The notes beneath the pieces are model-generated. The model ran no database searches. It was not told where the DNA came from and saw only the letters and a list, made by a program, of their open reading frames with translations. Positions 3,298-43,689 of a DNA stretch of 56,324 nucleotides are shown one piece after another. Position 1 is the first letter of the stretch; the number at the start of each line of letters is the position of its first letter. This stretch comes from an uncultured Brevinematales bacterium (GTDB lineage: Bacteria > Spirochaetota > Brevinematia > Brevinematales > JAOACQ01), in assembly GCA_964392785.1 (NCBI GenBank), contig CAYMRH010000003.1:1-56324 (forward strand), given 5' to 3'. A program made the translations under genes and the position numbers.

Positions 3298-4154
3298 TCC
3301 AGGGTCTCGTTCTGGAGGCGGGCCAGTTTCAGGGTGTTGTCCAAAAGCATGGCCACCGTCATGAGCCCCACGCCGCCGGGCACGGGCGTAATGGCGGCGG
3401 TTTTGGGCGCCACGGCGTCGTAATCCACGTCCCCGACCACTCGGTACCCCTTGGGCAGCGAGGTATCCGGCACGCGGTTGATGCCCACGTCCACGACCAC
3501 GGCCCCGTCCTTGACGAAGTCGGCCGTCACGAAGCGCGGCTTGCCGATGGCGGCCACCAGAACGTCCGCCTCGCGGCACACGGCCTGCAGGTTCCTGGTT
3601 TTGGAATGGCACACCGTGACCGTGGCGTTTTTCTGCAGCAGGAGAATGGCCGCCGGTTTTCCCACGATGTTGCTCCTGCCCAGCACCACCGCGTTCTTGC
3701 CGTAAAGGTCCACCTGGTAGTGGTCCAGCATGCGGATAATGCCCTTGGGCGTGCAGGGTTCCGCCACGGCGCTACCCGCGAAGAGCTTCCCGAAATTGTA
3801 GGGATGAAAACAGTCCACGTCCTTGCCGGGGTCGATCGCATCGATCACGCGGCTTTCGTCAATATGATCCGGCACGGGCATCTGCACCAGGATTCCGTTC
3901 ACGGTCGCGTCCGCGTTCAGTTCCCGGATTTTGTCCAGAAGCGCCGCTTCCTCGGTGTCCGCGGGCATGCGGATCACCAGCGACTGGATACCGGTTTCCC
4001 GGCACCCCTTTTCCTTGGAGGCCACGTAGCTGGCGGAAGCCCCGTCGTCACCCACCAGGATCACGGCCAGTTTGACCGGCTTGCCGAACGCGGCCACTTC
4101 CGTCTTGACCCGGTTGCGTTCGATTTCCGCGAGCGATTTACCGTCCAGGATCAT
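3294..4154 (-). CDS. folD: Bifunctional methylenetetrahydrofolate dehydrogenase/cyclohydrolase FolD
   Basis: 286 aa collinear with FolD (ILVGDDGASASYVASKEK..., GILVQMPVP, VVLGRSNIVGKP, PGGVGLMTVAML). Confidence 0.9.
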   Translation of the reverse strand: MILDGKSLAEIERNRVKTEVAAFGKPVKLAVILVGDDGASASYVASKEKGCRETGIQSLVIRMPADTEEAALLDKIRELNADATVNGILVQMPVPDHIDESRVIDAIDPGKDVDCFHPYNFGKLFAGSAVAEPCTPKGIIRMLDHYQVDLYGKNAVVLGRSNIVGKPAAILLLQKNATVTVCHSKTRNLQAVCREADVLVAAIGKPRFVTADFVKDGAVVVDVGINRVPDTSLPKGYRVVGDVDYDAVAPKTAAITPVPGGVGLMTVAMLLDNTLKLARLQNETLE

Positions 4155-4572
4155 CGGTTTCTCCGTCCTGTTTTTCTTTCGTGTCCTTTTCCGCTTTGTC
4201 CCCGGCCATGCCGGAAATCTGGTCCGCGGACAGTGTGACCGGTTCCCATTTTTTGATGTGAAGGACTTTTTCCTCGAATTCCCGCGCCAGCTTTTCCTCT
4301 TCCCGGTCGCGCCGGTCTTCCATAAGAAGCATGTGGACCACCGCGGCGGCCTTCTGCGCGAAATCGTCGATCACTTTCTGGTGCCCGGCCCTTTTGTAGA
4401 GCTTGACCGCGGCCACCTGCTTTTTTTCGTCGAAATAGAGGTGATCCGCCACGCGGATAATGCCGTCCCTGTAATCCGTGGCCAGATAGACCTTGAGCGC
4501 GTTCTTGAAATCGCCGCCGTTGAACAGCTCGTTGCCGCGCCGGATCAGCGCCGCCCGGTCGGATTCGTCCAT
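4138..4572 (-). CDS. Hypothetical protein, Lys/Glu-rich
   Basis: 144 aa ORF with protein-like composition and no recognised motif. Its stop overlaps the folD start by 17 nt. Confidence 0.4.
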   Translation of the reverse strand: MDESDRAALIRRGNELFNGGDFKNALKVYLATDYRDGIIRVADHLYFDEKKQVAAVKLYKRAGHQKVIDDFAQKAAAVVHMLLMEDRRDREEEKLAREFEEKVLHIKKWEPVTLSADQISGMAGDKAEKDTKEKQDGETDDPGR

Positions 4573-5696
4573 GGCGCCTTGCCTCCGGGGTGATTATAGC
4601 ACGGGGGGGAGGGTTTTGGAAGAATATTCGTTGCCACGGAGGGCCCCACAAAATTGCCACGAAGACACAAAGGCACAGAGAGCTCATGATAACCGCTCAG
4701 GGGGCCAGGCTACGAGTCATTTCGATTTGCGACATCCGCTCGCCCTCTCGACGCGGCTCGGGGCAGGCTCGCGGGCAAAAAGGGCTCCGCCCTTTTCAAA
4801 CCGTGCGATTGACGCAGCCCTTGCCTTGATTAAATATTATATCGATTTCACATCACGGTGCGGAACCGCCAACTTCAGTAGGGGCGCGACCACTACTGCA
4901 CCGCGCCATTTCTTTTCATAAAATCAGTGATCCTGGCAGGATGGGCATGCGCTCGCCGCGCGGGCGAAAAGGGCTCCGCCCTTTTCAATCCCTATTCGCG
5001 CCGCTCTCTCAAGGGTAAGAGCGTCGGGCAGAAACGCCTGGGGTGAGAATCGGGGATATTTCGCATCCGGAGCCCACGACGGGCGACGTACTTTCGCCGA
5101 CAGGATGTCCAGGCGAAAGTGCTTCCATGGATTGAATTGATATACGTAATCCCGCACTCACAACATCCTGTTCGTGCGGGACCTCCGCATCCTGCTTCGG
5201 TCCCCTCACCGAAGGACATCACGTTCGGCAGGCTCAGTGCAGGCCCTGTCCTTCTCAGAAGAGCCGCATTTCTTCCCTGAAGAAGAAGCGAGAGCTAAGC
5301 GCGCGGAGATTGTTTTGATTTGGGATTGGCCTCCCGCGCATACGAGTGGCTAAGGCGCGTGGGGGATAGGAACGGAGAAACGGGAGAACGAATAGGTGTT
5401 AAAGAAATCCCGCTCTCCGAGCGTGCAGCACCTGCACGCAGGTGCTGGACGGCCGAGGAGAGCTAAGGCGCGCGAGGGGTAATGAACGGAAGAACGAATC
5501 GGCATAACAACTCGCTCTCCGTGGTTCGACACGGCCGCCGCGATAAATCAATGATCCGCCGTCGCCAGTATTCCTTGGCCCGAAATCCGAAGAATACCAC
5601 CATATGGCGTCAGAACTGTTTATTGGAAAATTATAGATAGCTGAAAAGGCAATACCTGTAATATGCAGCAGGAAAACTAGAATTATGCCTAACTTC
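4573..5696. repeat. 1.1 kb non-coding, repeat- and hairpin-rich region
   Basis: No credible ORF in any frame. Two copies of a ~30 nt hairpin repeat, CGCGGGCRAAAAGGGCTCCGCCCTTTTCAA, at 4771-4800 and 4961-4990. Degenerate ~70 bp direct repeats at about 5346-5420 and 5461-5525 (GCTAAGGCGCGYG...GAACGGARAA...GAACGAAT...CGCTCTCCG). A long imperfect hairpin at 5412-5463 (GCTCTCC...CAGCACCTGC ac GCAGGTGCTG...GGAGAGC). One copy of the CCACGAAGACACAAAGGCACAGAGAG motif at 4657-4683. Confidence 0.5.
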
Positions 5697-7625
5697 CTAA
5701 TATTCACATATTACCCCGTTTATTGATTTTAAATATGTACTGCCATTAGTGAGCGTCGCATTAATTATCACGCTCTCATTATTTATCCCAATTACTTGTG
5801 TTGCTAATGCGTTTTTAAAAGTAACAACATTGATTATATTGTTTAACTTGTTCACAAGGACAATCAAACCTCTTTCTTCTCCTTTTAATACATAATAACC
5901 GTTGATCACACTAATATTATTATTATTTAAATAGACATTGTGTTCTCGCCCAGGAGAAAATAAAAAATAATACTGATCACTTACACCATTCTCAAAATCA
6001 TATCTTTTTCCATCAATCACAAGAGGTTTGTTCTTAAATACGTTATTATTTACGATACCTGATTTTCCTTTTAAATCTTTCACTTTCGCAAAAGCATTCC
6101 AGTTATTATATGCATCGATAATTGTCATGCCCGCTTTTTCAAATTCTTCTTTCTTGATATCAATATTAATATTGTAACCAGGCACTTCTCCGGTTAAATA
6201 GCCTTCCCAAACCGGGCCATTATAATCATTAATATATGGCACTATTAAAACAACATTCTTTACGGTGCCAACAGTAATCTTGGCTTCCTTTTCTGAAAAT
6301 ACTACCCGGTTATTTGGATTGTCATATAAATGCTCCAGCCCGGCTTCAACATGAAAATTACCATCTATCCACACTTCTTTTATCTTGTTCAGCGACGTGT
6401 CGTAACTATATAAAGTTATTCTAGTCTTTTGCACCCAGTTGTTTTTAACTACAATATTGTTAATCTGATTCATGTAGTAACGATAATCAGTCCCGTATTG
6501 TTCGCTATCGAATATCTTCTTCTCCAAATCAATAAGACCTGCCGGTTTGAATACTTCAAAAACAGCTATCATTCCATAAAAGTTGATTACTGGATAACGG
6601 AATAATGCATATTGAATACTGTTAATATTGGTGATTACGGGAATATCTTTATAGATCTTTCTGATATAGTTGAAGTTGTAGCCCAGAAGATCTTCCAGCA
6701 CAACTACTTTACCGTTTTTTCTGAGCAATGTTTTATCTTTTCTTGTGTTAGGAAATAACTTTGATGCTTCTGGAGTCTTATATTTCAATTTACCTATTAA
6801 TAACGTTTCGTCAATGTTTCCTCTGGAAAGATTTGGGTCAACCGAATAACCATTTGGCACAAAGAACTTTATATAATCGTTTTCTTTAAACTTTGTCTGA
6901 TTCGAATATTTTGTTGTGCTAGGAACTTCTACTGAAATAAACTTCTCAATCTGTACCGATTTCGCCACCAATTCCTTCGTTTCTATATTCTGAACGTTCA
7001 TCCAGCCCGTTTTCCCGCTGTCACTCACCACCAAGAATCTTTCCCCGTTGCCTTTCAACACGCGATATTTTTCGTTGGAAGTAACGGTTTCAATACTATT
7101 TTGAGACAACGGGTTGTCAAAATTATCTTTTGGAGAATAAGGCGTGTCATAGATCAAAGCCGGGCTTTTAGCAGTAAACACATTATCTTTTACTTTTAAG
7201 AATTTGCTTGAATCCCAATCTGCAAGAGCGCTTCTCAGCACCCAGCCACCCTTCGACAGGCTCAGGGTCCGGCTTTGTGCGCTTTGTGGCTTAGTGGTGA
7301 GCACTACCCTTGCCCAGCCGTCTTTCACCTCGTACATCCTCACCCTGTCGTACTTCATCACCTGCTCCGGGGCGTTTTTTCCGTCCCCGGCTTCAGGATT
7401 ATAAAATGCGGGCGTTTTGTCGGCCGGGATGTTTGGGAACAGGATCGCGTTGTTCTTGACGCAATACATGTCTTTGTATTTGCCGGAAGGGATGTCTGCG
7501 TCTTTTGTCTCTGCCGGGACCATGTCAGAGCCGGCCGTTTGATCAGCGGCATAAAGGGGTTTCTCAAATGCATTAATACCGAACAACGCCGCCAGAAAGA
7601 CAAGAATGGAAAGGATCAGTTTCAT
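5697..7625 (-). CDS. Secreted hypothetical protein with a compositionally chimeric gene
   Basis: 642 aa with signal peptide MKLILSILVFLAALFGINAFEKPLYAA. The 5' third (about 7000-7625) has genome-typical GC. The 3' two thirds (5697 to about 7000) are strongly AT-rich with Asn/Lys/Ile/Tyr-rich sequence. No known domain recognised. Confidence 0.6.
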   Translation of the reverse strand: MKLILSILVFLAALFGINAFEKPLYAADQTAGSDMVPAETKDADIPSGKYKDMYCVKNNAILFPNIPADKTPAFYNPEAGDGKNAPEQVMKYDRVRMYEVKDGWARVVLTTKPQSAQSRTLSLSKGGWVLRSALADWDSSKFLKVKDNVFTAKSPALIYDTPYSPKDNFDNPLSQNSIETVTSNEKYRVLKGNGERFLVVSDSGKTGWMNVQNIETKELVAKSVQIEKFISVEVPSTTKYSNQTKFKENDYIKFFVPNGYSVDPNLSRGNIDETLLIGKLKYKTPEASKLFPNTRKDKTLLRKNGKVVVLEDLLGYNFNYIRKIYKDIPVITNINSIQYALFRYPVINFYGMIAVFEVFKPAGLIDLEKKIFDSEQYGTDYRYYMNQINNIVVKNNWVQKTRITLYSYDTSLNKIKEVWIDGNFHVEAGLEHLYDNPNNRVVFSEKEAKITVGTVKNVVLIVPYINDYNGPVWEGYLTGEVPGYNINIDIKKEEFEKAGMTIIDAYNNWNAFAKVKDLKGKSGIVNNNVFKNKPLVIDGKRYDFENGVSDQYYFLFSPGREHNVYLNNNNISVINGYYVLKGEERGLIVLVNKLNNIINVVTFKNALATQVIGINNESVIINATLTNGSTYLKSINGVICEY

Positions 7626-7689
7626 GGTGTTGGCTCCAACAAATATTGATCTGCTGTTATTTTAGCCGTTCGCCCGGCCCTTCGATATA

Positions 7690-7862
7690 CGGCCTCGACT
7701 TCGGCCTCACCGGCGTCTCGATAGTCCGGCAAAGCAAGGAGCGGTGAACTCGACGACCGGTTCGGCCGAGACTTCGGTCCCCGAGCGATGCCCTGAGCTC
7801 AGCCGAACGGGTTTACGGCTTCCTCGTCCAGCAGCACTATCGAGGGGCCGAAGTCGAGGCCG
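7690..7862. repeat. Large imperfect palindrome between the ribD-like gene end and the start of the 642 aa gene
   Basis: Perfect 17 bp arms CGGCCTCGACTTCGGCC (7690-7706) and GGCCGAAGTCGAGGCCG (7846-7862). Nested arms TCGATAGT and CACTATCGA. Can fold into a ~170 nt hairpin. Confidence 0.5.
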
Positions 7863-7985
7863 CCACACTCCTTTATGAGTTCTCTGCGTCATCGCGTGAT
7901 CGGATTCCGCGCCTGCCCCAAGCCGTCACCCTGAGCGGAGCCTGCGGTGAGCTTGTCGAACCGTCGAAGGCAGCATTTTCATTAT

Positions 7986-8639
7986 CTACTTCCCGATCCG
8001 GTACCTCAGCCACACCGACCCGTCGGGCAGGGTTTCGGTGTGGAACAAAGTGACCGGCACGGTTTTTCCGCCCTTTTCCAGGTCGGGCGCGATGAAGATC
8101 CCGCTGTTGGTCTGCCCGCCCACAAGATAGGGGCACACCAGAAGGGAGAGTTCGTCCGCCAGGCCCTCGCGCAGGAGCGCCCCGTTGAGCGGCCCGCCGC
8201 TGTCCGTGCGGATGGTCTCGATGCGGTATTTCTTGCGGAGTTCTTCGAGGGCGCGGCGCAGGTCCACGAATTTTTTTCCGGCGCGGATGTAGGGCACGCC
8301 CAGGGACTTGAGAAAGGCGATGTGGTCTTCCGGAGTAATTTCCGAAACGAGGACGATCACGTCCTTCCAGAACGGTTCGCTGCGGATGCGCTCCAGGTTT
8401 TTCACCTGGCCCCGCGTGTCCACGATCACGAGCCACTGTCCGCTCGTCTTTTCCGCGTCGCGGGCCGGCGGTTTGCGGCCGTTGTCCCGGTAGGCGGCCA
8501 GGATCGTGCCGCTTCCGGACAGCATGGCGTCGGCCTGGAAGCGTCCGGCCAGTTCGTAGTAGAGGGCAATGTCGCCGCGGAAATGGTCCAGCCGTCCGTC
8601 CACGCTCACGGCGTTATGGATGATGACTTTCGGGAGCAA
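7986..8639 (-). CDS. RibD C-terminal domain / dihydrofolate reductase-like pyrimidine reductase family protein
   Basis: 217 aa. MLPKVIIHNAVSVDGRLD... and GGPLNGALLREGLADELSLLVCPYLVGG match the RibD_C reductase fold. Confidence 0.7.
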   Translation of the reverse strand: MLPKVIIHNAVSVDGRLDHFRGDIALYYELAGRFQADAMLSGSGTILAAYRDNGRKPPARDAEKTSGQWLVIVDTRGQVKNLERIRSEPFWKDVIVLVSEITPEDHIAFLKSLGVPYIRAGKKFVDLRRALEELRKKYRIETIRTDSGGPLNGALLREGLADELSLLVCPYLVGGQTNSGIFIAPDLEKGGKTVPVTLFHTETLPDGSVWLRYRIGK

Positions 8640-15179: not shown

Positions 15180-15350
15180 GTTTTCCTGCCCTTCAGCCCT
15201 GAATATCAGCCCATATGATAAGCAAAAATCATCGAAATAACCACTATTTTAAAACCCTGAAAATAGGGCCCAAAAAGGTAATGGATTTAAGAAAACTTCC
15301 GATTTTTACTATGTTATCCGAGAGCCGCATTGGCGCAGAAGGAGAGGGTT

Positions 15351-16301
15351 ATGAAGTTCCAGAAACTCATCCTGACGGTCCTGATGATCTGCACGGGAAC
15401 CGCAGCGGGATTCTCCGTCATCAGCCGGACGCTGATCGATTTTTCCAAATACGATCAGAACCTGAAAGCCCAGTACACCGAACCCGAAGAGGGCTACGTG
15501 ACGAACATTGACGGCCAGCCCCAGGTCGTCCTGGGTTACAGGGACTACCTGCTGGAAAACTGGAGAGTGGACCTGAACGAAACTTCGTCCGGGATGGCCA
15601 ACAGGATTTACAGCTACTGCCGCCCCGTGGCCAGCCAGCGGTTCGAGACCGTCCTGGGCGCCCGGATCCACTTCCCGAACTGGCGTAACAATTCCTACGC
15701 GATCATCCGCCCGCCTTTCCCCATCCGGATTTACGACGAAAACGGCCAGTACGCCAACGCCGAAAACGGCGTGATGCCCAACGTGGCGGAAATCAAGACC
15801 ATGTCCATCTGGGTCAGCGGCCGGAACTACCGCTACGGCCTGGCCGTGCGCCTCATCGACCGCTACAGCAAGATCCACGAATTCTTCCTGGGCTGGATCC
15901 ATTTTGACGGATGGCGCAAGCTCGTGTGGACCAACCCCAATTATACCGAAACGGTGATCGCCAAGAGCCTGTCCCGCGAACCGCTCTACCCCTACGACAT
16001 CCCCTTCATGATGTTCGATTCCCTGGTCATCTACCGCCCGTCCGACCAGATCGGCGGCGATTTTGTGGTGTATTTCAAGTCCATCGAAATGGAATACACG
16101 CCGTACATCGTGGACACCACGTTCACCGACGACATCCGCGACGAAGAGGTGTGGGGCATCATCACCGCCAAGATGAAACGCCGCAAAGCCATCGAGGAAA
16201 AGCGGATGGTGGAAGACCTCTATCTCTATCAGCAGGAAAAGCGCCGCATCCAGGCCGCCAAGGACGAGGTCGGCGGACAGCGGACCGGGACCAACCGTTA
16301 G
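15351..16301 (+). CDS. Secreted hypothetical protein
   Basis: Signal peptide MKFQKLILTVLMICTGTAAGFS. The ORF listed from 15330 adds 7 residues. Aromatic-rich mature protein with no recognised domain. Followed by a strong terminator. Confidence 0.5.
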   Translation: MKFQKLILTVLMICTGTAAGFSVISRTLIDFSKYDQNLKAQYTEPEEGYVTNIDGQPQVVLGYRDYLLENWRVDLNETSSGMANRIYSYCRPVASQRFETVLGARIHFPNWRNNSYAIIRPPFPIRIYDENGQYANAENGVMPNVAEIKTMSIWVSGRNYRYGLAVRLIDRYSKIHEFFLGWIHFDGWRKLVWTNPNYTETVIAKSLSREPLYPYDIPFMMFDSLVIYRPSDQIGGDFVVYFKSIEMEYTPYIVDTTFTDDIRDEEVWGIITAKMKRRKAIEEKRMVEDLYLYQQEKRRIQAAKDEVGGQRTGTNR

Positions 16302-17360: not shown

Positions 17361-17435
17361 TCCGATCGTCTGGACCGGAGTCTGTTGATAGGCCGGACCT
17401 GCAGTGGGATTGCAGACTGGGGAGGGGATTTTAAA

Positions 17436-19550
17436 ATGGAAGAACTCGTCCGGGACCTTGTCCGTTCCAAGAAATCCATCGACCAGGCCGCGTTCGTCAC
17501 CAAACGGGACGGGCGCGTGTCCGAATTCGACGCCGCCAAAATCGCCACCGCGGTCCACAAGGCCTTCCAGGCCACCGGCGAGGGCAACTACAACCAGGCC
17601 TGGGAAATCACGGCCATCGTGGTGAGCAAGCTCGACAAAAGCGTGGTGGAAATCGAATACATCCAGGACGTGGTGGAAGACACCCTCATGAACATGGGTT
17701 TCCGCCGGACGGCCAAGGCCTACATCCTCTACCGCGCCAAGCGGAACGAACTCCGGAACATCAGCAAAACCCTGAACGAAAGCCTGAATATCATCGAGAA
17801 TTACGTGAATCTGCGCGACTGGCGCGTGAACGAAAACTCCAACATGAGCTATTCCCTCCAGGGCTTAAACGCCCACGTGTCTTCCTCCATTACCGCAAAC
17901 TATTGGCTTTCCAAGATTTACACGCCGGAGATCGGCGAAGCCCACCGGTCCGGGGCCATCCATATCCACGACCTGGGGTCGCTTTCCGCCTACTGCGTGG
18001 GCTGGGACCTGGAACAGCTTCTGATCCAGGGTTTCGGCGGGGTCCCGGGAAAAATCGAGAGCGCGCCCGCGAAACACTTCCGCACCGCGCTGGGCCAGAT
18101 CGTGAATTTCTTCTACACCCTGCAGGGCGAGGCGGCCGGGGCGCAGGCGTTCGCCAATTTTGACACGCTGCTCGCGCCGTTCGTCCGTTACGACGGGCTC
18201 GCGTACGAGGACGTCAAGCAGGCCCTCCAGGAATTCGTCTTCAACCTGAACGTCCCCACGCGCACCGGTTTCCAGACGCCGTTCACCAACATCACCTTCG
18301 ACCTGGTGTGCCCCGGCATCCTGCGCGACAAGGGCGTGATCGTGGGCGGGGAAATCCGGGAGGAAACCTACGGCGATTTCGCGAAGGAGATCGAGTGGAT
18401 CAACCGCGCCTTTGCGGAAGTCATGCTGGCCGGGGACTCGAAAAACCGCCCGTTCACGTTCCCCATTCCGACCTACAACGTCACGAAAAGTTTCGACTGG
18501 TCCAACCCGGCTTACGACGCCATCTGGGCCATGACGGCGCGTTACGGAACGCCCTACTTCAGCAACTTCATCAATTCCGACATGAACGAGGAGGACGCGC
18601 GCAGCATGTGCTGCCGGCTCAGGCTGGACAACCGCGAGGTGAGGTCCCAGCTGGACCGCGTGTCCGCGGCGTCCGGCCATTCCGGAGACGAAGCGTCTTC
18701 CGGCGCCCGTCGCGGCGGGCTTTTCGCCGCCAACCCCATGACCGGCTCGATCGGCGTGGTGACCGTGAATCTGCCCGTGATCGCCTTCGAAGCGGCGGAC
18801 GAAGCCGATTTCTTCTCGCGCCTGCGCCACATCATGGAAGTGTCCAAGACATCGCTGGAAATGAAGCGCAAGGCCGTGGAGGAACTCACCGGCAAGGGAC
18901 TCTATCCCTACACGCGCATATACCTGAAGGACATCAAAAAGCGCAGCGGCCGCTTCTGGACCAACCACTTCTCCACCATCGGCCTCATCGGGATGAACGA
19001 GGCCGCCATGAATTTCCTGAAAGTCCCGTATCATTCCGCCGAGGGCCGCGCGTTCGGGCTGAAAGTCCTGGACTTCATGCTGTCCGTCCTGGAAACCTTC
19101 AAGAAGGAAACGGGCAATCTCTACAACCTGGAGGCGTCCCCCGCGGAAGGCGCGAGTTACCGCCTGGCCAAGGCGGACCGGAAAAAGTATCCGGACATCC
19201 TCGCGTCCGGTTCCGAGGAAACGCCCTACTACACCAACTCCGTGCACCTGCCCGTGAACGCCACGGACGACATCTTCGAGCTCCTGGACCACCAGGACGA
19301 ACTGCAGTCGCGTTTCACCGGCGGCACGGTCATCCATATTTTCGTGGGCGAGAAGATCACGGACCCGAAATCGGTGGCCAGCGTGGTCAGGACCGTCGCC
19401 ACCCGGTACCGCCTGCCCTATTTTTCCATCACGCCCACGTTCTCCGTGTGCCCCGTTCACGGCTACATTGCCGGCGAACACCCGTGCTGCCCCATGCCGC
19501 ACACGGAACAGGAACTGAAACAGTACGGCAAATACATCGAAGCGATCTGA
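17436..19550 (+). CDS. nrdD: Anaerobic ribonucleoside-triphosphate reductase (class III RNR) catalytic subunit, lacking the glycyl-radical tail
   Basis: Preferred start is the ATG at 17436 (MEELVRDL) after GGAGGGGA; the listed 17385 is a TTG. NrdD-typical blocks include GGVPGKIESAPAKHFRTALGQIVNFFYTLQGEAAGAQAFANFDTLLAPFV. It ends after a Cys-rich stretch SVCPVHGYIAGEHPCCPMPH without the RVxGY glycyl-radical motif. Confidence 0.85.
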   Translation: MEELVRDLVRSKKSIDQAAFVTKRDGRVSEFDAAKIATAVHKAFQATGEGNYNQAWEITAIVVSKLDKSVVEIEYIQDVVEDTLMNMGFRRTAKAYILYRAKRNELRNISKTLNESLNIIENYVNLRDWRVNENSNMSYSLQGLNAHVSSSITANYWLSKIYTPEIGEAHRSGAIHIHDLGSLSAYCVGWDLEQLLIQGFGGVPGKIESAPAKHFRTALGQIVNFFYTLQGEAAGAQAFANFDTLLAPFVRYDGLAYEDVKQALQEFVFNLNVPTRTGFQTPFTNITFDLVCPGILRDKGVIVGGEIREETYGDFAKEIEWINRAFAEVMLAGDSKNRPFTFPIPTYNVTKSFDWSNPAYDAIWAMTARYGTPYFSNFINSDMNEEDARSMCCRLRLDNREVRSQLDRVSAASGHSGDEASSGARRGGLFAANPMTGSIGVVTVNLPVIAFEAADEADFFSRLRHIMEVSKTSLEMKRKAVEELTGKGLYPYTRIYLKDIKKRSGRFWTNHFSTIGLIGMNEAAMNFLKVPYHSAEGRAFGLKVLDFMLSVLETFKKETGNLYNLEASPAEGASYRLAKADRKKYPDILASGSEETPYYTNSVHLPVNATDDIFELLDHQDELQSRFTGGTVIHIFVGEKITDPKSVASVVRTVATRYRLPYFSITPTFSVCPVHGYIAGEHPCCPMPHTEQELKQYGKYIEAI

Positions 19551-19588
19551 CAGGCGAAAGTCGCGCCTGAGCATAGTGGAGGGGAGTC

Positions 19589-19738
19589 ATGACCGAACAG
19601 AAGGAAAAAAAGCTCGTCGTTCCCACGGAAGTTTATTCCCGCGTGGTGGGCTACTACCGCCCCGTCCAGCACTGGAACACCGGCAAACAGCAGGAATTCG
19701 GGGAACGCAACACCTACGAAAAGAAACTGGGCTTGTAA
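19589..19738 (+). CDS. Small ORF carrying the class III RNR glycyl-radical motif (detached NrdD C-terminal tail)
   Basis: 49 aa: MTEQKEKKLVVPTEVYSRVVGYYRPVQHWNTGKQQEFGERNTYEKKLGL. RVVGYY fits the glycyl-radical loop consensus RVxGY. Its own GGAGGGGAG ribosome-binding site lies 5 nt upstream. It is in a different frame from nrdD and separated from it by 38 nt. Confidence 0.5.
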   Translation: MTEQKEKKLVVPTEVYSRVVGYYRPVQHWNTGKQQEFGERNTYEKKLGL

Positions 19739-19807: not shown

Positions 19808-20455
19808 GTGTTTAAGGGCATCCGGAGATCTTCCCTGATCGACTTTCCCGGCCTTGTCTGCGCCACGCTGTTTACGGGCGGCTGCAATTTTGACTGCCCG
19901 TGGTGCCACAACCGGGAACTGGTGGACCCGCACCTTCTCAATTCCATGCAGGACATTCCCGAAGACATGATCCGCGAATTCCTGGTTTCCCGCAGGGGAA
20001 AACTGCAGGGCGTTTGCGTCACGGGCGGCGAACCCACCCTGTGGGGCCGGAAACTGGGCGAATTTTTCACCTGGTGCAAGGACACCGGTCTCCAGACCAA
20101 GCTGGACACCAACGGCTACCTGCCGGACACCCTGGCCGAATATCTGGACGCGCGGGTCCTGGATTTCGTGGCCATGGACCTGAAAAACATTTTTCCCAAA
20201 TACTCCGAAACCGCCAACCTCCCGGACCTGGATCTGTCCCGGATCAAACGGTCCGTGGAACTGATCCGCAAAAGCGGCGTTCCGCACCAGTTCCGCACCA
20301 CGGTCGTACCGGGCCTGGTCGTGGAAAGCGAGGTGCGCGAATTTTTCAGCGATCTGGGGGAAGCGGTCGTGTTCCAGGAGTACCGGGAGCCGGTTCAGGA
20401 AGCGGTTGACAGGGGAACCGGGCCTTTACCCCGGGAATCCTCCCGTTCAGAATAA
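19808..20455 (+). CDS. nrdG: Anaerobic ribonucleoside-triphosphate reductase activating protein (radical SAM)
   Basis: GTG start. Radical-SAM cluster motif CNFDCPWCHN and a glycine-rich VCVTGGEPTL. Confidence 0.85.
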   Translation: MFKGIRRSSLIDFPGLVCATLFTGGCNFDCPWCHNRELVDPHLLNSMQDIPEDMIREFLVSRRGKLQGVCVTGGEPTLWGRKLGEFFTWCKDTGLQTKLDTNGYLPDTLAEYLDARVLDFVAMDLKNIFPKYSETANLPDLDLSRIKRSVELIRKSGVPHQFRTTVVPGLVVESEVREFFSDLGEAVVFQEYREPVQEAVDRGTGPLPRESSRSE

Positions 20456-20545: not shown

Positions 20546-20575
20546 TTGACAGTGTGCGTACACTTATACTATAAT
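20546..20575 (+). promoter_or_regulatory. Candidate promoter of the MerR-like gene with a dyad in the spacer
   Basis: TTGACA (20546-20551), an 18 nt spacer containing the imperfect dyad GTGTGCGTACAC, then TATAAT (20570-20575). Set in an AT-rich 150 bp intergenic region. The gene starts at 20605. Confidence 0.4.
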
Positions 20576-32549: not shown

Positions 32550-33391
32550 AAACACGACGGCGGAAATTCTTCATATTCTCGAATCTTTTTCTGTTCCTTT
32601 TTACGGCCATCTGGTTTGTCCCGACCATCGCGCTCTTTGTCAGTTCGTTCCGCCTGCCCGCAGATCTCTCCGTCTCCGGCTGGTGGAACGCTTTTCTCCA
32701 TCCCGATCGCCTTACGCTGTCCAATTATAAACTCGTCCTCTTCCAGTCCGGCATCGCGCGGGCGTTTTTGAATTCCCTCATTATTTCCATCCCGTCCACG
32801 ATCATCCCGGTGGCCGTGGCGTCGCTGGCGGCCTATTCGTTCGCCTTTATGGAATTCCCGTTCCGAAAAACGCTGTTCATCACGATTCTCGCCCTGCAGG
32901 TCATCCCGCTACAGATCACCCTCATCCCCACGCTCGTCATGCTCAAAGATCTGCGCCTGGCGGGCACGTTCCCGGGCTTGTGGCTCGCCCATTCGGCCTA
33001 CGGCCTGCCGTTCGGAATCTACCTGCTCCACAATTTCTTTTCCAAAATCCCGTCCTCCATCCTGGAATCGGCGCAGATGGACGGCGCCTCCCACCGGCAG
33101 ATCTTCCTCAAGATCATCCTGCCGCTGTCCGTCCCGGCGCTGGCGAGCCTGGCGATTTTCCAGTTCCTTTGGGTTTGGAACGATCTCCTCATCGCGCTGG
33201 TGTATTTGGGCGGCACGCCGGACGTGGCCCCGCTCACCATCCGCATCGCGGGCATGAAGGGGTCGCTGGAATCGGGCTGGCATATCATGACGACGGCGGC
33301 GTTCATCTCGATGGTCCTGCCGCTTGCGGTGTTCTTTGCATTGCAGAAGTATTTTGTGAGAGGGATCCTGGCGGGGGCGGTGAAGGAATAG
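32546..33391 (+). CDS. Sugar ABC transporter permease (MalG/UgpE-like)
   Basis: EAA motif ESAQMDGASHRQIFLKIILPLSVPALA. 4 nt overlap with the upstream permease gene. No ATPase gene adjacent. Confidence 0.85.
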   Translation: MKTRRRKFFIFSNLFLFLFTAIWFVPTIALFVSSFRLPADLSVSGWWNAFLHPDRLTLSNYKLVLFQSGIARAFLNSLIISIPSTIIPVAVASLAAYSFAFMEFPFRKTLFITILALQVIPLQITLIPTLVMLKDLRLAGTFPGLWLAHSAYGLPFGIYLLHNFFSKIPSSILESAQMDGASHRQIFLKIILPLSVPALASLAIFQFLWVWNDLLIALVYLGGTPDVAPLTIRIAGMKGSLESGWHIMTTAAFISMVLPLAVFFALQKYFVRGILAGAVKE

Positions 33392-33480
33392 GTTTTTAGC
33401 CGCAGAGACACGGAGGACGCAGAGTTTACATAATAGTAGGGGCTATGAGCCCCTCTGGCCCCAAGTATTTTTTTCGCCTC

Positions 33481-33693
33481 GCCGGCGTGGCCATAAGGGG
33501 GCCTGCCCCCTTAAACCCCGGGTGCGCGCGGTGCCCTCTCACGGGCAGGACATTGCGAAAGAAACGCGCGGGGGTAAGAATCGCAAACACTCGCCATCGT
33601 GGCGAGGGTTTGCTCATCGAAAGACATCCTGTCTTTCTTAGAAATACTTCGTTTCCTTCACGGAGTAGAATCGAGGGCACAGCGCCGGAAGCA
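33481..33693. repeat. Left ~215 bp inverted repeat bounding the AT-rich island
   Basis: GCCGGCGTGGCCATAAGGGGGCCTGCCCCCTTAAACCCCGG...TGCGAAAGAAACGCGCGGGGGTAAGAATCGCAAACACTCGCCATC...CTTCACGGAGTAGAATCGAGGGCACAGCGCCGGAAGCA. About 75% identical to the reverse complement of 44400-44626. Contains the hairpin TAAGGGGGC-ct-GCCCCCTTA. Confidence 0.6.
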
Positions 33694-33722
33694 AGAACGG
33701 AGAAGGAGTATTAGATATCCAT

Positions 33723-36218
33723 TTATAATTCATTTGCACCAATCACTGTGTCATAGAGTCCAATATCTTCGCCTTCGTGCTTGTTGACTCCGGTATAAAC
33801 CAGACTCGAATCTTCATAGCGTTTGAATTTATAAACGGCATCATTCATTAAAGCGCTGTTAAAAACGTTAAGGCTGACCAATAACTCGAAATCTTTCACA
33901 TTCAATCCCGTTACTTTCTTGAAAAGGCCTGGTTCCAATTGGGTAATTACATCCCGCAAAGTTCTCTCACGGAAATCAGTCAAATACATGAAAATCGGTA
34001 TACGAGTCGCAAATTTAATGAGTTTTTCTTGAATCTGCTTTCTGAGATTTTTATAGGTCTTTTCTTCTTCCGTCAATTTCTTCAGCTCTTTTTTAGTTAG
34101 GTCTCGGTCATTCGCTTCATTCTTTAACTTCTTGATCGCATCCGACTTGTTTATTATAGTTTCAATTTCCTGATTCAGTCTGCGGAAACCCTCGATGTTC
34201 ATAAGCGCCTGCATGGCTTTTTCATTGTTCATAAGTTTTTGGAGTGTGTCATTATCAACATTGACGAGAAGCGCGCTTTCCCATCGGCGCGCCAGTAACG
34301 TAGCGGTGGTTCCGCTCATAGCGATATCTAACACACCCGCCGGATCAATCTCTTTCATGCTCATTCCGTCATAACACAGTACCGGCAAGAAATGAATGAA
34401 ATCCGCTACTTTCTTTTCAGGATTCGTTTCATAAACACTCAGACGGCAGCTATAATCCGCGATTTGCCTTAAAGCCCTGTCCGGTGCAAAATCGAACACA
34501 TAGCACTCACTTTTAATGATTTCTTCTTTATTGGGTGATGAATGATCCGGATTTCTCACCGTCCAGGGCGACTGAACACGGAAAGCCGCTTGAAAGTAAG
34601 TTTCCGGACTGGATGTATTTCTCAGCATGAGAATACCAGTCCACGGTTTTATCGTAACGCCTGTGGTCAGTTTACCGCAGGAAAGCGTGATGGTTTTTGT
34701 TTTCAAAGGGTCGTCCATTGCCTCCAAAACTGGAGGCAGTGCGTCAACTCCTATACCCGCATCGGAACCGGCTGCTACAACAACCTGATAATCATGATAA
34801 AATTTATTCTGCTTTTGGCCAATCAGGGATTTCATGGCATGGCAGGCCGAAACACTGGGCATAAACCAGAGAGTATGGGTTAGTATATTCAATAAACGAG
34901 CGTCTGAAAACGGTAATGGGGGTTTCTGCGCACCCAGTTTTAAATTATCGACAGTTGTTTCCAGTAAGGAACCACGTATCAGATCAAGCCACTTCTGGAC
35001 TTCGTTTTCGTGTACAAATTTCGCACGACTGCCCAATCCCTCGGCGGAGAAAAATTCGTTTAAGTCAAACTCGTTGAATTCTCCTTTCAGGGCGATTTCC
35101 CTTATACTGTCGGGAAGCTGGTAAGTCAGCATGACCATCCTAGGCAGGGCCGCGTAGGGATTTTCTCCGTCCTTCCAATCTTCCTTTGCTTTCTGTTCGT
35201 CTGAATAAGTCCAGTTGAATATCTGTTCTTCGATAAATTCCCCCGATGTAATGGCCCGAAACGGGGTGCCTGAAAGGTATAGATAGTGGCTTGTTGTTAG
35301 CGGCATGATGCTTTCATCAAAATATTCAATACCTTCGCCCTCTGCAAAGGCAGTTTCTTTTCTATCTTCCGCCTCAAATAATTCCTTGGCATTCTCGCGC
35401 CATGCGCCGTAATGATACTCGTCAAAAATAACACAATCCCAATGAATAGCATGAGCCCATTCGTTTTTTAGTTTGATTCCGCCCGCCTCGTTACGCCCGA
35501 GGAAATCCTGAAAAGACGCAAAACAAATGAAGGGTTTGTTTTTCTTCACTTCCTCATAAGTCAAACCGTTACGGGAAATGAATTGCCAGCCTTTGAAATC
35601 AATATGGGACTTCAAATCTTCTTCCCAAGCGCTCTGGACGGCGGGCTTGAAAGTCAATATCAGGACTTTTGACCAGCCCATGGATTTGGCCAACTGATAA
35701 GAGGCGAAGGTTTTACCAAAACGCATTTTCGCGTTCCAGAGAAAGTGAGGTGTTTTACGCGGATTTTCCTTTTTGAATGATTTGAAATAGACCATTGCTT
35801 TTTTGACGGCCTCTTTTTGTTCCGGCCGCATGGAAAAATCCAGGGTGCGGGATTCCTCATTCAATTCACCCCTTTTCACAGCCAACACGGCGGCTTTTAC
35901 CTTCTCAACCGAACATTGAAACCACTCGCCCTCGGGGTTTTTTATACCGATTAATCTTAAATAGCGATGAACATCATGGTCAGTAAAGGAGCTTCCGTCT
36001 CCCCGCATGGCCGATTCTTCAAGAACGATCCGGTAAGGTAAAGGCCCCGGCCTGACCGTTGGGTACTGCTCGGCCACCCGCTCTTGGGCACTTTTTGTCG
36101 TATAACCGACCTTTAATAGCCCCTTATACTGCGGATTGGTGTCTTCATAAGCATAAATGATCGGCTTGACTTCGGGCCTTTGTGGAAATATTTCTTTAAC
36201 GGCCACTCTTATCTCCAC
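33723..36218 (-). CDS. T5orf172/GIY-YIG-like nuclease domain fused to an SF2 helicase/ATPase (restriction-subunit-like), 831 aa
   Basis: The N-terminus PIIYAYEDTNPQYKGLLKVGYTTKSAQERVAEQ resembles the T5orf172/GIY-YIG domain. Walker A AKMRFGKTFASYQ and motif II VIFDEYHYG. Last gene of the five-gene operon. Confidence 0.6.
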   Translation of the reverse strand: MEIRVAVKEIFPQRPEVKPIIYAYEDTNPQYKGLLKVGYTTKSAQERVAEQYPTVRPGPLPYRIVLEESAMRGDGSSFTDHDVHRYLRLIGIKNPEGEWFQCSVEKVKAAVLAVKRGELNEESRTLDFSMRPEQKEAVKKAMVYFKSFKKENPRKTPHFLWNAKMRFGKTFASYQLAKSMGWSKVLILTFKPAVQSAWEEDLKSHIDFKGWQFISRNGLTYEEVKKNKPFICFASFQDFLGRNEAGGIKLKNEWAHAIHWDCVIFDEYHYGAWRENAKELFEAEDRKETAFAEGEGIEYFDESIMPLTTSHYLYLSGTPFRAITSGEFIEEQIFNWTYSDEQKAKEDWKDGENPYAALPRMVMLTYQLPDSIREIALKGEFNEFDLNEFFSAEGLGSRAKFVHENEVQKWLDLIRGSLLETTVDNLKLGAQKPPLPFSDARLLNILTHTLWFMPSVSACHAMKSLIGQKQNKFYHDYQVVVAAGSDAGIGVDALPPVLEAMDDPLKTKTITLSCGKLTTGVTIKPWTGILMLRNTSSPETYFQAAFRVQSPWTVRNPDHSSPNKEEIIKSECYVFDFAPDRALRQIADYSCRLSVYETNPEKKVADFIHFLPVLCYDGMSMKEIDPAGVLDIAMSGTTATLLARRWESALLVNVDNDTLQKLMNNEKAMQALMNIEGFRRLNQEIETIINKSDAIKKLKNEANDRDLTKKELKKLTEEEKTYKNLRKQIQEKLIKFATRIPIFMYLTDFRERTLRDVITQLEPGLFKKVTGLNVKDFELLVSLNVFNSALMNDAVYKFKRYEDSSLVYTGVNKHEGEDIGLYDTVIGANEL

Positions 36219-36245
36219 CTACTTAATTTTTATAGCATTGTAATA

Positions 36246-37751
36246 TTAAGCATTATCTGAATCCATGGGACGAATCATCGATTCGATGAACTCAATATCC
36301 TTGTCACTTAAACCAAAATGCGAGTATAACATTTTATCTGTCCATTTCTTTTTCATATTCATTTTTGGAACAAATGCAAATCTATCCTTTGTTATATGTT
36401 GCGTGTTTTTCCGCAACCCAACAAGAAATCTTACAAATCTTGTTCTTATATATCTGTTTAAATTATCCGCTTCATCCTGATTATCGTATGCACCAACGAC
36501 AATATATGTTTCGGTGCAGGCGCTCATAGGGGGCGCAATTATTGGTTTTCCCATAATCATACGTGGATAATCTCTGGTTTCACCGCCCTCACCATAGCCC
36601 ATAGATAGAAACACTTTCCATAAAGGAATTAATTCAAAACCATTTTCTATATCCTTTCTTTCGATCTTACCAACAGTTTTATTGGCATATAGCTTAATAT
36701 TACCTTTACCAGTTGGTTTGATAAACGTCCTTAGTCCGAAAGGTTTTTGCCGGGATACTTGTTCGCTGAGCGATGGATATTTTTTCTCCAATACCTTATC
36801 AAGGATTGATATCGCTTTGTTAAAACGGACAAATGTATCAAATTGATTAAGCTTTCGTTTCATCGAGTCTTCATTGTTATTCATATTTGTCGTAACAAGA
36901 CAGTCTCCTTGGTAATCGCGTTCCCATAAGAAGTAACAAACACCGCCAATAACTTTTACTCCGGGAAATACATCCGATGCAATAGGATAATCAACCAATC
37001 TTGATATTCTTTTATCATTCAACATGCTGTCTCTGAATTCATCAAGGCCTTTGCCTCCTGCAAACCAACGCGAAGGAATAATAAAGCTGAGATATCTTGG
37101 ATTTAATTTCTTGGCAGTATTGACAAATAATTGATAAATTGGGGATGAGCCTGTGCTATCACCGGCATCACTCAATTGATACGGCGGGTTGCCTACAATC
37201 ACGTCAAATTTCATATTAAATAACTCCTCCGTCTGTTCGGTATGGATAAACTGATACGCATGCGTTTCCAGCGTTTCGCCGCGATCATATTCAACTTGGC
37301 TTGCGCCACAATAAACACATTTACCGTCTTCCCATTTGTGTTTGATGCTTTTAAACATGATATTGCCAACTTCATTTGTAAAAGCACTGCAAACGGAATA
37401 CTTTCCATCCGCTATTTTTGAACAGTATAGCGACCTTCGTGATAAAAGAGCGGTCAGCTCGGTAATGGCAATACCGAATATCTGTTTGGTGTAAATATGA
37501 TTTAGACGCTTTTGCATACTCGGAATTTCTTTTTCAAGACCCGCAATAAGCCGTTTGGCGATTTCCCGCAGGAATACGCCTGATTTTGAAACAGGATCAA
37601 GAAATGTCACATTTTTGTTTTTCCAGAGATCTGCAGGCAGTAAATCCAGTATTCTGTTGGCCAACTGTGGCGGTGTAAACACCTCGTCACTACTTAAATT
37701 GGCAAGGCAAGATAAAACATCCGGGTTATAGCCGGTATTAATCAGCATCAA
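36246..37751 (-). CDS. N6-adenine DNA methyltransferase (gamma-class, Eco57I/TaqI-like), 501 aa
   Basis: Motif X DEVFTPPQLANRIL, motif I FLDPVSKSGVFL and motif IV FDVIVGNPPYQ. The C-terminal half is a probable target-recognition region. Confidence 0.75.
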   Translation of the reverse strand: MMLINTGYNPDVLSCLANLSSDEVFTPPQLANRILDLLPADLWKNKNVTFLDPVSKSGVFLREIAKRLIAGLEKEIPSMQKRLNHIYTKQIFGIAITELTALLSRRSLYCSKIADGKYSVCSAFTNEVGNIMFKSIKHKWEDGKCVYCGASQVEYDRGETLETHAYQFIHTEQTEELFNMKFDVIVGNPPYQLSDAGDSTGSSPIYQLFVNTAKKLNPRYLSFIIPSRWFAGGKGLDEFRDSMLNDKRISRLVDYPIASDVFPGVKVIGGVCYFLWERDYQGDCLVTTNMNNNEDSMKRKLNQFDTFVRFNKAISILDKVLEKKYPSLSEQVSRQKPFGLRTFIKPTGKGNIKLYANKTVGKIERKDIENGFELIPLWKVFLSMGYGEGGETRDYPRMIMGKPIIAPPMSACTETYIVVGAYDNQDEADNLNRYIRTRFVRFLVGLRKNTQHITKDRFAFVPKMNMKKKWTDKMLYSHFGLSDKDIEFIESMIRPMDSDNA

Positions 37752-38409
37752 TTAGCCTCAGAAAATGAGTAACGGGGTACTCTCTGACAGGATCGGGTAT
37801 AAATACATCATCCCCTAGGTCGGAAAAAAGCGGCTCGCTCTTTATTTCTTCATGGGCTAAAAGTCCGTGAAAAGTAAAATCGCGCCTTTTGATATTGCTT
37901 CCATTAACGGGCGACCATTCGGAAAATGTGATGGGATTCTGAGTCACCCCAACGGTTTTAAGAGTCAGCGCGTCGCCCCAAATGATATTTTTACTTAATA
38001 TGAACTTGACCGAATCGAGGCATTCTTTCTTGATCTGATTTTGGAATATAGTCACATATCTTTCATTAAATATCTCGAAAAGACGGTTCCGGCAGTCCTG
38101 AACGTTATCTTCCAGAATATCGATGCCGTAAACACTGGAAATAACCAAAACGGCATTACGCTCATATTCAATCTGGCTTTTAGCATACTTCGTTTCAACC
38201 ATGCTTAATTTGCGCCGGAGAATTACGGCTAAAAAGTTGCCTGCTCCACAGGCCGGTTCCAGAAAACGGGATTCAATTCTTTCCGTTTCTTGTTTGACAA
38301 GATCCAGCATAGCATTGACTTCCCGCGACGCGGTATAGACCTCGCCGTGGTCAGTTACACGCTGTTTGGAAACGACTTGGGATGCTTGTTTCATTTGCGT
38401 CATATTCAA
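37738..38409 (-). CDS. Truncated methyltransferase-like paralog (SAM-binding motifs X and I present, catalytic NPPY absent), 223 aa
   Basis: HGEVYTASREVNAMLDLV (motif X-like) and FLEPACGAGNFL (motif I). No NPPY/DPPY; the corresponding position reads NIIWGDAL. Overlaps the downstream MTase gene by 14 nt. Confidence 0.55.
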   Translation of the reverse strand: MNMTQMKQASQVVSKQRVTDHGEVYTASREVNAMLDLVKQETERIESRFLEPACGAGNFLAVILRRKLSMVETKYAKSQIEYERNAVLVISSVYGIDILEDNVQDCRNRLFEIFNERYVTIFQNQIKKECLDSVKFILSKNIIWGDALTLKTVGVTQNPITFSEWSPVNGSNIKRRDFTFHGLLAHEEIKSEPLFSDLGDDVFIPDPVREYPVTHFLRLIDAD

Positions 38410-39143
38410 TTCAATTGCCTTTCTTTTTTACTTAACTTATCGTTATCAATAATATAGTATTCGAGAGTTTGATTATTCTTTGTATTCTTATTCTTAAGAA
38501 TATTCAGAAATACAAAACCAGCTAAAGCCTGATGGTCTCTGATGGCATGTTTAAAATTGATAAAATGAAGAATTATTAGTACAACAGCAATTACTATAAC
38601 ACAAGTATCTTTGAAAATTATTGATCTAGAAACAATGCACAAAGTTATTAATAACCAGGCCGCTAATGCTGAAATTGAGGCAATACATATTGTACCTAGC
38701 GAGGTTGAAACATCTGCCAATCTTTTCATTCTGGTAATATCATATTTAAAATTCGTATTCGCTTTTGAATGATCAATCACTGAATTTACGATTAAATACG
38801 ACCTTTTCTTTTGATTAACAAGTTTAATATTATCTTTGTAATTATTAAATATAATTAGATTATTATTTACAGCATAATCAACAATATCATTGAAATTGCT
38901 TGAATAACATGAACGCCAAACAAAAGCATAATATATTACACCAAATATAAAACCTAATCCTCCAGAAGCAAGTAAGCCAGAAAGTATAATAATTGCATTT
39001 CCGAGCGAACCATTAACTAGTAATGAATGAAAATAATTGAGAACAGTATAACGATCTGATGAAAGTAAAAAATATAATATCAATTCAACAAAAAACACCA
39101 GGCTCGGTAAAATATAGCGAAAATAGCTTTGCATATCTTTCAT
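38406..39143 (-). CDS. Hypothetical polytopic membrane protein, 245 aa
   Basis: At least 4 predicted TM helices. AT-rich codon usage matches the island. 4 nt start/stop overlaps with both neighbouring genes. Confidence 0.5.
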   Translation of the reverse strand: MKDMQSYFRYILPSLVFFVELILYFLLSSDRYTVLNYFHSLLVNGSLGNAIIILSGLLASGGLGFIFGVIYYAFVWRSCYSSNFNDIVDYAVNNNLIIFNNYKDNIKLVNQKKRSYLIVNSVIDHSKANTNFKYDITRMKRLADVSTSLGTICIASISALAAWLLITLCIVSRSIIFKDTCVIVIAVVLIILHFINFKHAIRDHQALAGFVFLNILKNKNTKNNQTLEYYIIDNDKLSKKERQLN

Positions 39144-39757: not shown

Positions 39758-39976
39758 ACATATCCAACTATTTATTATAATGCAATCACATTATACCCCC
39801 TCCCCCTCCATCTCGTCAAAGCATGATTAGGATTCAGGATATAGGATTTAGGGTTCAGAGGGGTAGGCAGGTCCTTGTTAGGGTCTAGAGGCCAAGATTT
39901 GGGATTCAGGGGGATAGACGGGTCATAGTAGGGATCAGAGGACTGGATTTAGATTTAGATAAAATATTCCGCTTGT

Positions 39977-40147: not shown

Positions 40148-40187
40148 ACCGCTCTCCTTTCAGCTCGTTTTCTAAGCGAAACCAATT

Positions 40188-43608: not shown

Positions 43609-43689
43609 AATTTATCTTCCCGAATTATGTTTATGTTACATCGGGTTTGTTTCTTTTGCCTGACCGCTAACTCATATATATACGAATCC

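Follow-up and report, generated by a model that had tools for sequence, protein, structure and literature searches.

Class III ribonucleotide reductase (RNR), the anaerobic enzyme, has been regarded as a single catalytic chain, and activation then requires that its glycyl-radical domain leave the barrel and reach the activase. Open questions are how the domain does so and by what means cells deal with oxygen, which cleaves the chain at the radical glycine (in E. coli NrdD, at Gly681). Here we describe a locus from an uncultured Brevinematales bacterium (contig CAYMRH010000003.1, positions 1 to 56,324; this whole stretch of 56,324 nucleotides (nt) is called the window below) in which an nrdD gene, a 49-residue open reading frame (ORF) and nrdG, the activase gene, follow one another in the same orientation, and in which the glycyl-radical loop is encoded by the small ORF and not by nrdD. 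We believe that the locus very probably encodes a natural two-subunit class III RNR, that is, one operon giving two separately translated polypeptides, in which the radical-bearing subunit is obligate and acts in trans.

The closest described systems are the one-piece NrdD/NrdG enzymes of E. coli, phage T4, Thermotoga maritima and Prevotella copri (NF006126/PRK08270). These have the same modules as the locus described here and have them in the same order, namely ATP-cone, NxN flap, barrel, MCCR finger loop, zinc-site region, RVxGY loop and WNxGK tail; here too an NrdG2-type activase is encoded alongside, and the modelled fold matches solved NrdDs. In contrast to the one-piece enzymes, a break separates the zinc-site region from the glycine hairpin, the second zinc pair reads C-x3-H in place of C-x2-C, and this pair is followed by a lineage-specific helical insertion that holds the break.

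Autonomous glycyl-radical cofactors have been described for another enzyme. GrcA (YfiD) of E. coli and Y06I of phage T4 act as a 'spare part' for pyruvate formate-lyase (PFL), GrcA being activated by the PFL activase and supplying the radical in trans (PMC8683613, PMC12338860). Like GrcA, the 49-residue peptide is a small stand-alone homologue of a C-terminal glycyl-radical region, and phage-borne versions of both exist. However, GrcA is of the PFL type, has about 127 residues and backs up a full-length PFL with a glycine of its own, whereas the peptide is of the NrdD type and is the sole source of a glycine loop in its operon; it matches PF13597 (NRDD) only, and Gly_radical (PF01228) is unmatched even at E 0.1. 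The name 'GrcA-like', given to the peptide by an earlier note made from the letters of the window, therefore stands as a functional analogy but not as a statement of family membership. With no glycine loop in the body, the peptide would be obligatory rather than a backup.

Two further kinds of divided gene invite comparison. Crona et al. are said to have described, in 2015, a class II RNR of Pseudomonas aeruginosa that is split as NrdJa and NrdJb. There, as here, an RNR catalytic subunit is encoded by two adjacent genes whose products are needed together, but the enzyme is of the B12-dependent class, the break point is another one and neither piece holds a stable protein radical. Split-intein fractured genes reportedly give one protein from two separate ORFs, and RNR genes are frequent intein hosts; at this locus there are no intein halves, while some relatives do carry inteins. 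No description of a split NrdD was found in the openly searchable RNR and glycyl-radical literature, subscription-only papers lying outside the search, and we provisionally regard the arrangement as undescribed. It is common to many bacteria, archaea and viruses and has apparently gone unremarked.

A complete NrdD across two open reading frames

On the NF006126 profile (684 positions) the body occupies positions 4-653, with 983.6 bits against a cut-off of 548, and the peptide occupies positions 650-683. On Pfam NRDD (PF13597, 562 positions) the body covers 1-531 (E 1.7e-174) and the peptide 533-562, the latter alone, with 38.2 bits, being enough to exceed the gathering threshold of 26.2; the body also scores 487 with TIGR02487, for which the cut-off is 326. 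Because the two stretches abut on the family profiles, no part of NrdD is missing from the pair of ORFs, and none is duplicated; a comparison that the earlier note had proposed, for residues possibly lost at the break, thus turned up no gap. The features of the locus are as follows.

17421 to 17428, plus strand: Shine-Dalgarno sequence of nrdD, GGAGGGGA, read from the sequence; 10 nt separate the end of its GGAGG core from the ATG at 17436.
17436 to 19550, plus strand: nrdD body, 704 residues, from the ATG at 17436 to the TGA at 19548-19550; matches Pfam NRDD and ATP-cone and NCBIfam NF006126.
17493 to 17750, plus strand: ATP-cone, residues 20-105 (PF03477, E 6.9e-21).
18609 to 18614, plus strand: finger-loop Cys392-Cys393 (SMCCRL), the presumed thiyl-radical site, from its invariance in 56 relatives.
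19449 to 19502, plus strand: zinc-site region C672-x2-H675-x9-C685-x3-H689, invariant in the 56 relatives, split and fused; putative metal ligands.
19551 to 19588, plus strand: 38-nt spacer with the ribosome-binding site of the peptide, read from the sequence.
19578 to 19586, plus strand: ribosome-binding site of the 49-residue ORF, GGAGGGGAG; 6 nt separate the end of its GGAGG core from the ATG.
19589 to 19738, plus strand: putative glycyl-radical subunit, 49 residues, in a frame other than that of nrdD; matches Pfam NRDD and NF006126.
19649 to 19651, plus strand: codon of Gly21, the predicted radical glycine, assigned by homology as the invariant G of RVVGY.
19808 to 20455, plus strand: nrdG, radical-SAM activase (TIGR02495, NrdG2; Radical_SAM and Fer4_12 domains).

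The body comprises the ATP-cone, the NxN flap, the ten-stranded barrel, the finger loop and the zinc-site region, without a glycyl-radical loop. Its C-terminal end reads ...SVCPVHGYIAGEHPCCPMPHTEQELKQYGKYIEAI (in a longer stretch of the tail, ...CPVHGYIAGEHPCCPMPHTEQELKQYGKYIEAI), so that the stop codon falls past the zinc-site region. The NxN flap (NENSN), C187, C392/C393 (SMCCRL), C672, H675, C685 and H689 are all invariant in the 56 relatives, and the double-cysteine MCCR motif places the finger loop in a described class (PMC9669993). The candidate zinc ligands are C-H-C-H here, as against C-x2-H...C-x2-C in the nearest canonical relatives and four cysteines in T4; the zinc site of this clade of NrdDs is apparently Cys-His-Cys-His rather than three cysteines and a histidine or four cysteines. 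The RVxGY motif is likewise present and invariant but lies off the barrel chain, on the separate ORF, and for this reason we file the enzyme as a split variant and not as a canonical class III RNR.

The 49-residue peptide, MTEQKEKKLVVPTEVYSRVVGYYRPVQHWNTGKQQEFGERNTYEKKLGL, consists of an N-terminal strand, the RVVGY hairpin and a WNxGKxxEFxxR tail. Downstream of it, after 69 nt, nrdG is intact (157.2 bits against the TIGR02495 cut-off of 131.15). The earlier note had already placed the end of nrdD at 19550 behind a Cys-rich segment and the small ORF in another frame at 19589-19738, had credited the latter with a strong ribosome-binding site whose GGAGG core recurs before nrdD, and had called nrdG intact, and in all of this it was right. 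Between nrdD, the small ORF and nrdG no promoter-like or terminator-like site was found, and Rfam gave no matches across the whole window.

Conservation and predicted separate translation

The split is real and conserved. Among the nearest 120 NrdD clusters, drawn from a collection of 5.8 billion proteins, 105 lack the glycine motif and 15 are one-piece, so that close relatives are far from being uniformly uninterrupted. The identical peptide and the split itself occur in three independent public assemblies, in one of which the spacer differs, the body is 94% identical and NrdG 82% identical, while the peptide is 100% identical. Each of three glycine-less bodies that were checked for a neighbouring small ORF has one. 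The first is from a cultured organism with a finished genome, Thermodesulfatator indicus DSM 15286, in which a 690-residue body is followed after 15 nt by the 58-residue Thein_0123 (AEH44008.1, WP_013906755.1, UniProt F8A8W1), a protein named either 'hypothetical' or 'anaerobic ribonucleoside-triphosphate reductase'; for the two others this reverse check found an adjacent NRDD ORF of 53 or 63 residues. This cultured source, Thein_0123 together with its upstream neighbour, is available for experiment.

The peptide is also found as a small protein wherever its homologues are collected. All 48 homologues from a word-index search have 34-74 residues. A HMMER profile scan of 1.84 billion representatives gave 4973 matches at E <= 1e-3 and 2756 at E <= 1e-10; the best 150 of the 4973 all have 49-106 residues, and 140 of the 145 newly returned sequences among these best matches start with Met. 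At 50% identity the family has at least 150 clusters, from bacteria, archaea and viruses. Twelve residues of the peptide are invariant (Y16, S17, R18, V20, G21, Y22, R24, P25, W29, K33, E36 and R40), and its ratio of nonsynonymous to synonymous substitution rates against relatives is 0.03-0.12, with synonymous sites saturated. Purifying selection is strong on both pieces. Three small proteins of the representative library (P0172, P0173 and P0187) have a tandem double glycine motif (as in ...CEVYSRVCGYFRPVSNWNKGRVCGYFRPVSNWNKGKKEEF), which reflects either an error of assembly or a genuine internal duplication.

The same division is seen when genomes rather than proteins are searched, as the earlier note had suggested. 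We scanned one genome per species for YSR[VI]VGYYR and sorted the 80 best loci, counting as split those with a small ORF downstream of a glycine-less body: 43 are split, 24 encode a one-piece NrdD and 13 hold the small ORF with no NrdD body within 4 kb. The junctions of the 43 split loci range from an overlap of the ORFs to about 220 nt and show all three frame relations, and almost every small ORF starts with an ATG of its own behind its own GGAGG, which rules out a conserved signal for frameshifting or hopping. The order body, peptide, nrdG is usually kept. In one Spirochaetota metagenome-assembled genome (MAG; L004, CAWAOD010000009.1, 2800-3927) an IS630-type transposase gene (DDE_3 and a helix-turn-helix domain) separates the body from the peptide gene, which has retained its ribosome-binding site and still has nrdG next to it. 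The small ORF is thus independently translatable. Of the two explanations offered by the earlier note, a natural two-piece NrdD complemented in trans by a stand-alone glycyl-radical peptide is the one that gains support, from conservation, purifying selection, the peptide's own ribosome-binding site, the variable junctions, the cultured genome and apparently independent origins.

Most members of this large NrdD clade are likely to look 'truncated' in databases, their partner ORFs being unnamed or labelled hypothetical. This could mislead both the metabolic reconstruction of uncultured anaerobes and automated pseudogene calls.

Proposed docking and radical cycle

We modelled the body joined to the peptide as one chain with AlphaFold2, using 103 alignment rows. 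The mean predicted local distance difference test score (pLDDT) is 86.3, and the best matches of the model in the PDB are class III RNRs (E 1e-32). Around and beyond the join, numbered along the concatenated chain, the scores are as follows.

Residues 701-710: junction of the two chains, mean pLDDT 68.
Residues 711-720: with the peptide strand 711-714 (KLVV), mean pLDDT 89.
Residues 721-730: glycine hairpin, mean pLDDT 74.
Residues 731-740: start of the C-terminal tail, mean pLDDT 77.

The last strand of the body (699-702) is followed in the model by the peptide strand 711-714, the glycine sits at the turn between the hairpin strands 718-723 and 726-729, and the finger loop is modelled as a hairpin too (388-398). 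A phmmer search of solved structures found no NrdD chain for either query, the peptide by itself or the C-terminal 102 residues after joining, and so the break was placed by profile positions and the AlphaFold2 model instead.

From these comparisons we infer that the two chains assemble in trans, with Gly21 as the likely radical site, and we propose the following cycle. NrdG would abstract a hydrogen from Gly21 of the peptide; activases do accept short peptides. The N-terminal strand of the peptide, KLVVP, would then pair with the last strand of the body, KYIEAI, and the hairpin would enter the barrel opposite the finger loop, just as happens in a one-piece NrdD, whose glycyl-radical domain is attached covalently. 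At each turnover the radical would shuttle between Gly21 and the finger-loop cysteine. In the one-piece NrdD of P. copri the glycyl-radical domain is mobile and leaves the barrel, as seen by cryo-electron microscopy and hydrogen-deuterium exchange (PMC11226230), which makes a detachable version plausible. If the radical loop is indeed carried by a free peptide of 5.8 kDa, separate components could be used to study activation, docking, exchange and repair.

What a cell might gain from this arrangement is a more speculative matter. As a possibility that falls short of probable, we suggest that the split is advantageous because oxygen, in cutting the chain at the radical glycine, would leave only the 49-residue part to be replaced, and because a free peptide may be easier for the activase to reach. 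The first of these arguments is established for GrcA and PFL (PMC8683613, PMC12338860).

Several points weigh against the two-subunit reading or against this rationale. The idea of a replaceable part has context only behind it, namely orphan genes, one oxidative-stress operon and viral copies, all taken up below, and fission by neutral drift accounts equally well for an adjacent split. The model is compatible with canonical docking, but a single concatenated chain cannot test the association of two chains; moreover, a first AlphaFold2 run with 56 rows, of which 15 covered the tail, modelled the tail poorly (pLDDT 30-74), and it was the addition of 47 peptide rows that brought it to 70-89. Charge complementarity between the two termini (acidic tails in 32 of 38 bodies, basic N-termini in 26 of 38 peptides) is no more than a trend and is weak in the window (-1 against +1). 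Finally, about ten split loci in which both ORFs share a frame (for example L011, L015 and L016) are compatible with low-level read-through of the stop codon to a fused chain.

Competing readings, orphan genes and the rest of the window

The main alternative for why the split exists is that it is neutral: a stop and a start codon would have arisen in a tolerant linker and never been selected against, leaving an obligate heterodimer that behaves as the one-piece enzyme does, with no benefit for repair, activation or regulation. We consider this a serious possibility, if one that falls somewhat short of even. It is in keeping with the position of the break, which always falls in a variable linker, in this clade the lineage-specific insertion HTEEELKKYG... 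(12 to about 50 residues, described as helical) after the zinc site, and with the usually conserved order of body, peptide and nrdG. The clade, marked by its C-x3-H second zinc pair, includes Brevinematales, other Spirochaetota, WOR-3, Aquificota, Deferribacteres, Aminicenantes, Thermodesulfobacteria and others. Repeated interconversion of fused and split forms, which would be expected if the two were roughly equivalent, also fits. In a neighbour-joining tree of 62 bodies the large split clade contains nested fused lineages (L012; L019/L058/L072; L026/L043/L069), separate split clades stand among fused ones (a Treponema-like group with the canonical CPxC site, and L028 from Aenigmatarchaeota), and the archaeal splits L054 and L060 lie beside fused relatives, L054 being nested in a fused Iainarchaeum clade. 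This suggests several independent fissions and re-fusions, 'several' being as close a count as a quick distance tree, in which the number of events is only rough, can give. Neutrality sits less easily with the excess of split over fused forms in this clade (105 against 15) and with peptide genes that lie away from any NrdD body, namely a second copy in a MAG, a copy in an operon with Fur-family, rubrerythrin and desulfoferrodoxin genes, and copies on many viral contigs; such genes suggest that the free peptide is of value in itself.

The junctions differ in character between lineages. In the fused relative L012 (JBMFQR010000008.1, 3899-4048) an in-frame AGGAGG-N6-ATG persists in the linker (KEEGKM), either because the stop codon was lost and the two ORFs fused again or because the site remains an internal start from which free peptide is made. 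In L054 (3926-4153), L060, L035, L051 and L056 the small ORF begins M..C(G)K..TEVYSR, which would put the last zinc cysteine on the peptide and give a zinc site that bridges both chains. In the Treponema-like split (L055, 3929-4465; L067, L071, L074 and L078) the small protein has about 178 residues and combines the glycine loop with a weak glutaredoxin-like domain (PF00462, E 6.5e-4, below the cut-off); the body C-terminus, KEKEARLREEI..LE.EL, and the N-terminus of the small protein, KEARLVELKAEL, both resemble amphipathic helices and may form a coiled-coil tether. Some NrdD relatives reach 1020-1140 residues. P0084 and P0149 have intein/LAGLIDADG domains in the barrel (PF14528, PF14890), and the bodies of L045 and L046 have an insertion of about 1 kb that we take to be likewise an intein. 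For the window itself a split intein was considered and rejected, as neither product matches an intein domain of Pfam and the break leaves too little sequence on its two sides, with 15 residues past the zinc site on the body and 12 before the conserved core on the peptide.

Peptide genes without a neighbouring body occur in cellular genomes and, more often, on viral contigs. The MAG JAGVBZ01 holds a split operon (L017) and in addition a second, orphan peptide gene (L033, 3971-4156); this orphan adjoins a gene for a D12 adenine methyltransferase and for that reason may be prophage-borne. In the Saccharibacteria MAG CAZQIO010000027.1 (L053, 3264-5119) a 102-residue protein combining a zinc ribbon with the glycine loop, with no NrdD body within 4 kb, is encoded beside a Fur-family regulator, rubrerythrin and desulfoferrodoxin, an oxidative-stress operon. 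In L065 and L070 (3081-5539) the orphan stands between a rhodanese-like gene of 289 residues, so called from its C-terminal sequence, and a gene for a metallo-beta-lactamase-plus-rhodanese protein (Pfam). Other orphan copies lie behind a promoter-like sequence of their own. Among the 80 best loci on IMG/VR viral contigs (L086-L165), 50 are orphans with neither NrdD nor NrdG within 4 kb, 4 are split with body and peptide adjacent and 14 are one-piece; the neighbours of the viral orphans are mostly of unknown function, and one orphan sits right behind an amidase (endolysin-like) gene. GenBank phages gave one clear stand-alone case, the 144-residue AJP62049.1 of the archaeal virus ANMV-1 (KP703175.1, 25525-25959), while Methanobacterium virus PhiF1 encodes a full-length NrdD. 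PHROGs holds no family for the peptide, with only weak matches to the C-terminal end of the NrdD family phrog_487.

These contexts, circumstantial as they are, suggest that the free peptide has a use of its own, and the viral copies suggest a new kind of auxiliary metabolic gene. A wider proposal, which we put forward as possible but well short of probable, is that the 49-residue ORF is one member of a family, very large and so far unrecognised, whose autonomous NrdD-type glycyl-radical peptides act as exchangeable radical-carrying subunits of anaerobic RNR. In this proposal the activase would charge the free peptide, which would dock in a barrel that lacks a glycine loop or has been cleaved by oxygen and would be discarded once oxygen had damaged it, and phage orphans would keep up the anaerobic supply of deoxyribonucleoside triphosphates in the host.

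Orphan copies elsewhere may fit a GrcA-like rescue role, and it could be asked whether the small ORF of the window is itself such a backup, serving a full-length NrdD elsewhere in the genome while the body encoded here is inactive or otherwise employed. It is true that a peptide gene need not lie next to a body gene, as the orphans show, and just 56 kb of the genome is visible. However, given that the motifs of the body are all invariant (C187, C392/C393, the NxN flap, the ATP-cone and the zinc ligands), that the body stands in an operon with the peptide and nrdG, that this arrangement is kept in 43 genome loci and that no second RNR gene was seen among the ten window ORFs that were scanned, the remaining ORFs not having been scanned, we consider this very improbable.

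Recoding, by which a programmed frameshift, a ribosomal hop or read-through would fuse both ORFs into one normal NrdD, has hardly any claim left. The ORFs are adjacent and co-oriented, and in some relatives they share a frame with a single stop codon between them, as such a mechanism would have it. Nevertheless, spacer length, sequence and frame differ from one close relative to the next, nearly all of the small ORFs come with a GGAGG and an ATG of their own, an insertion sequence lies between the two genes in L004 and orphan peptide genes exist. In the spacer of the window there is no visible slippery site and no unusual RNA structure (fold z-score 0.77); an RNA element or a terminator in the spacer was likewise considered and dropped, none being found.

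The other explanation offered by the earlier note, that an indel or rearrangement, or an assembly error, broke an ordinary nrdD, has nothing in its favour beyond a stop codon and a change of frame in what is normally a single gene, and it can be set aside. The same split recurs in three independent assemblies and in T. indicus, a cultured organism with a finished genome; of the 120 nearest clusters, 105 are split; both pieces are under strong purifying selection; and the peptide has its own ribosome-binding site and start codon. Nor do we accept as a scar of duplication or rearrangement the near-duplicate codon strings to which the note pointed at the two edges of the break (19503-19523 and 19592-19612): only 14 of their 21 nt agree, they are absent from the output of the repeat finder, and the N-terminal TEQ of the peptide is not kept in relatives. 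We treat their resemblance as a chance likeness of two Glu/Lys-rich linker pieces.

Beyond the operon, the window holds some further features of note. A gene for the flagellar outer-layer protein FlaA at 15330-16298 marks the organism as a spirochaete. Downstream of nrdG, a perfect sigma-70 consensus, TTGACA-18-TATAAT (20546-20575), stands ahead of a MerR-family gene, which is followed, up to 23383, by genes for a small ferredoxin and then two subunits of a 2-oxoacid:ferredoxin oxidoreductase. Two islands of low GC content, at 33000-44000 and 4000-8000, have values of 0.37-0.50 against about 0.59 elsewhere. The larger of them encodes, both on the minus strand, a T5orf172+ResIII protein (33723-36218) and a UvrD-helicase with a topoisomerase-type zinc ribbon (40936-43608), and is probably a horizontally acquired defence or mobile island.

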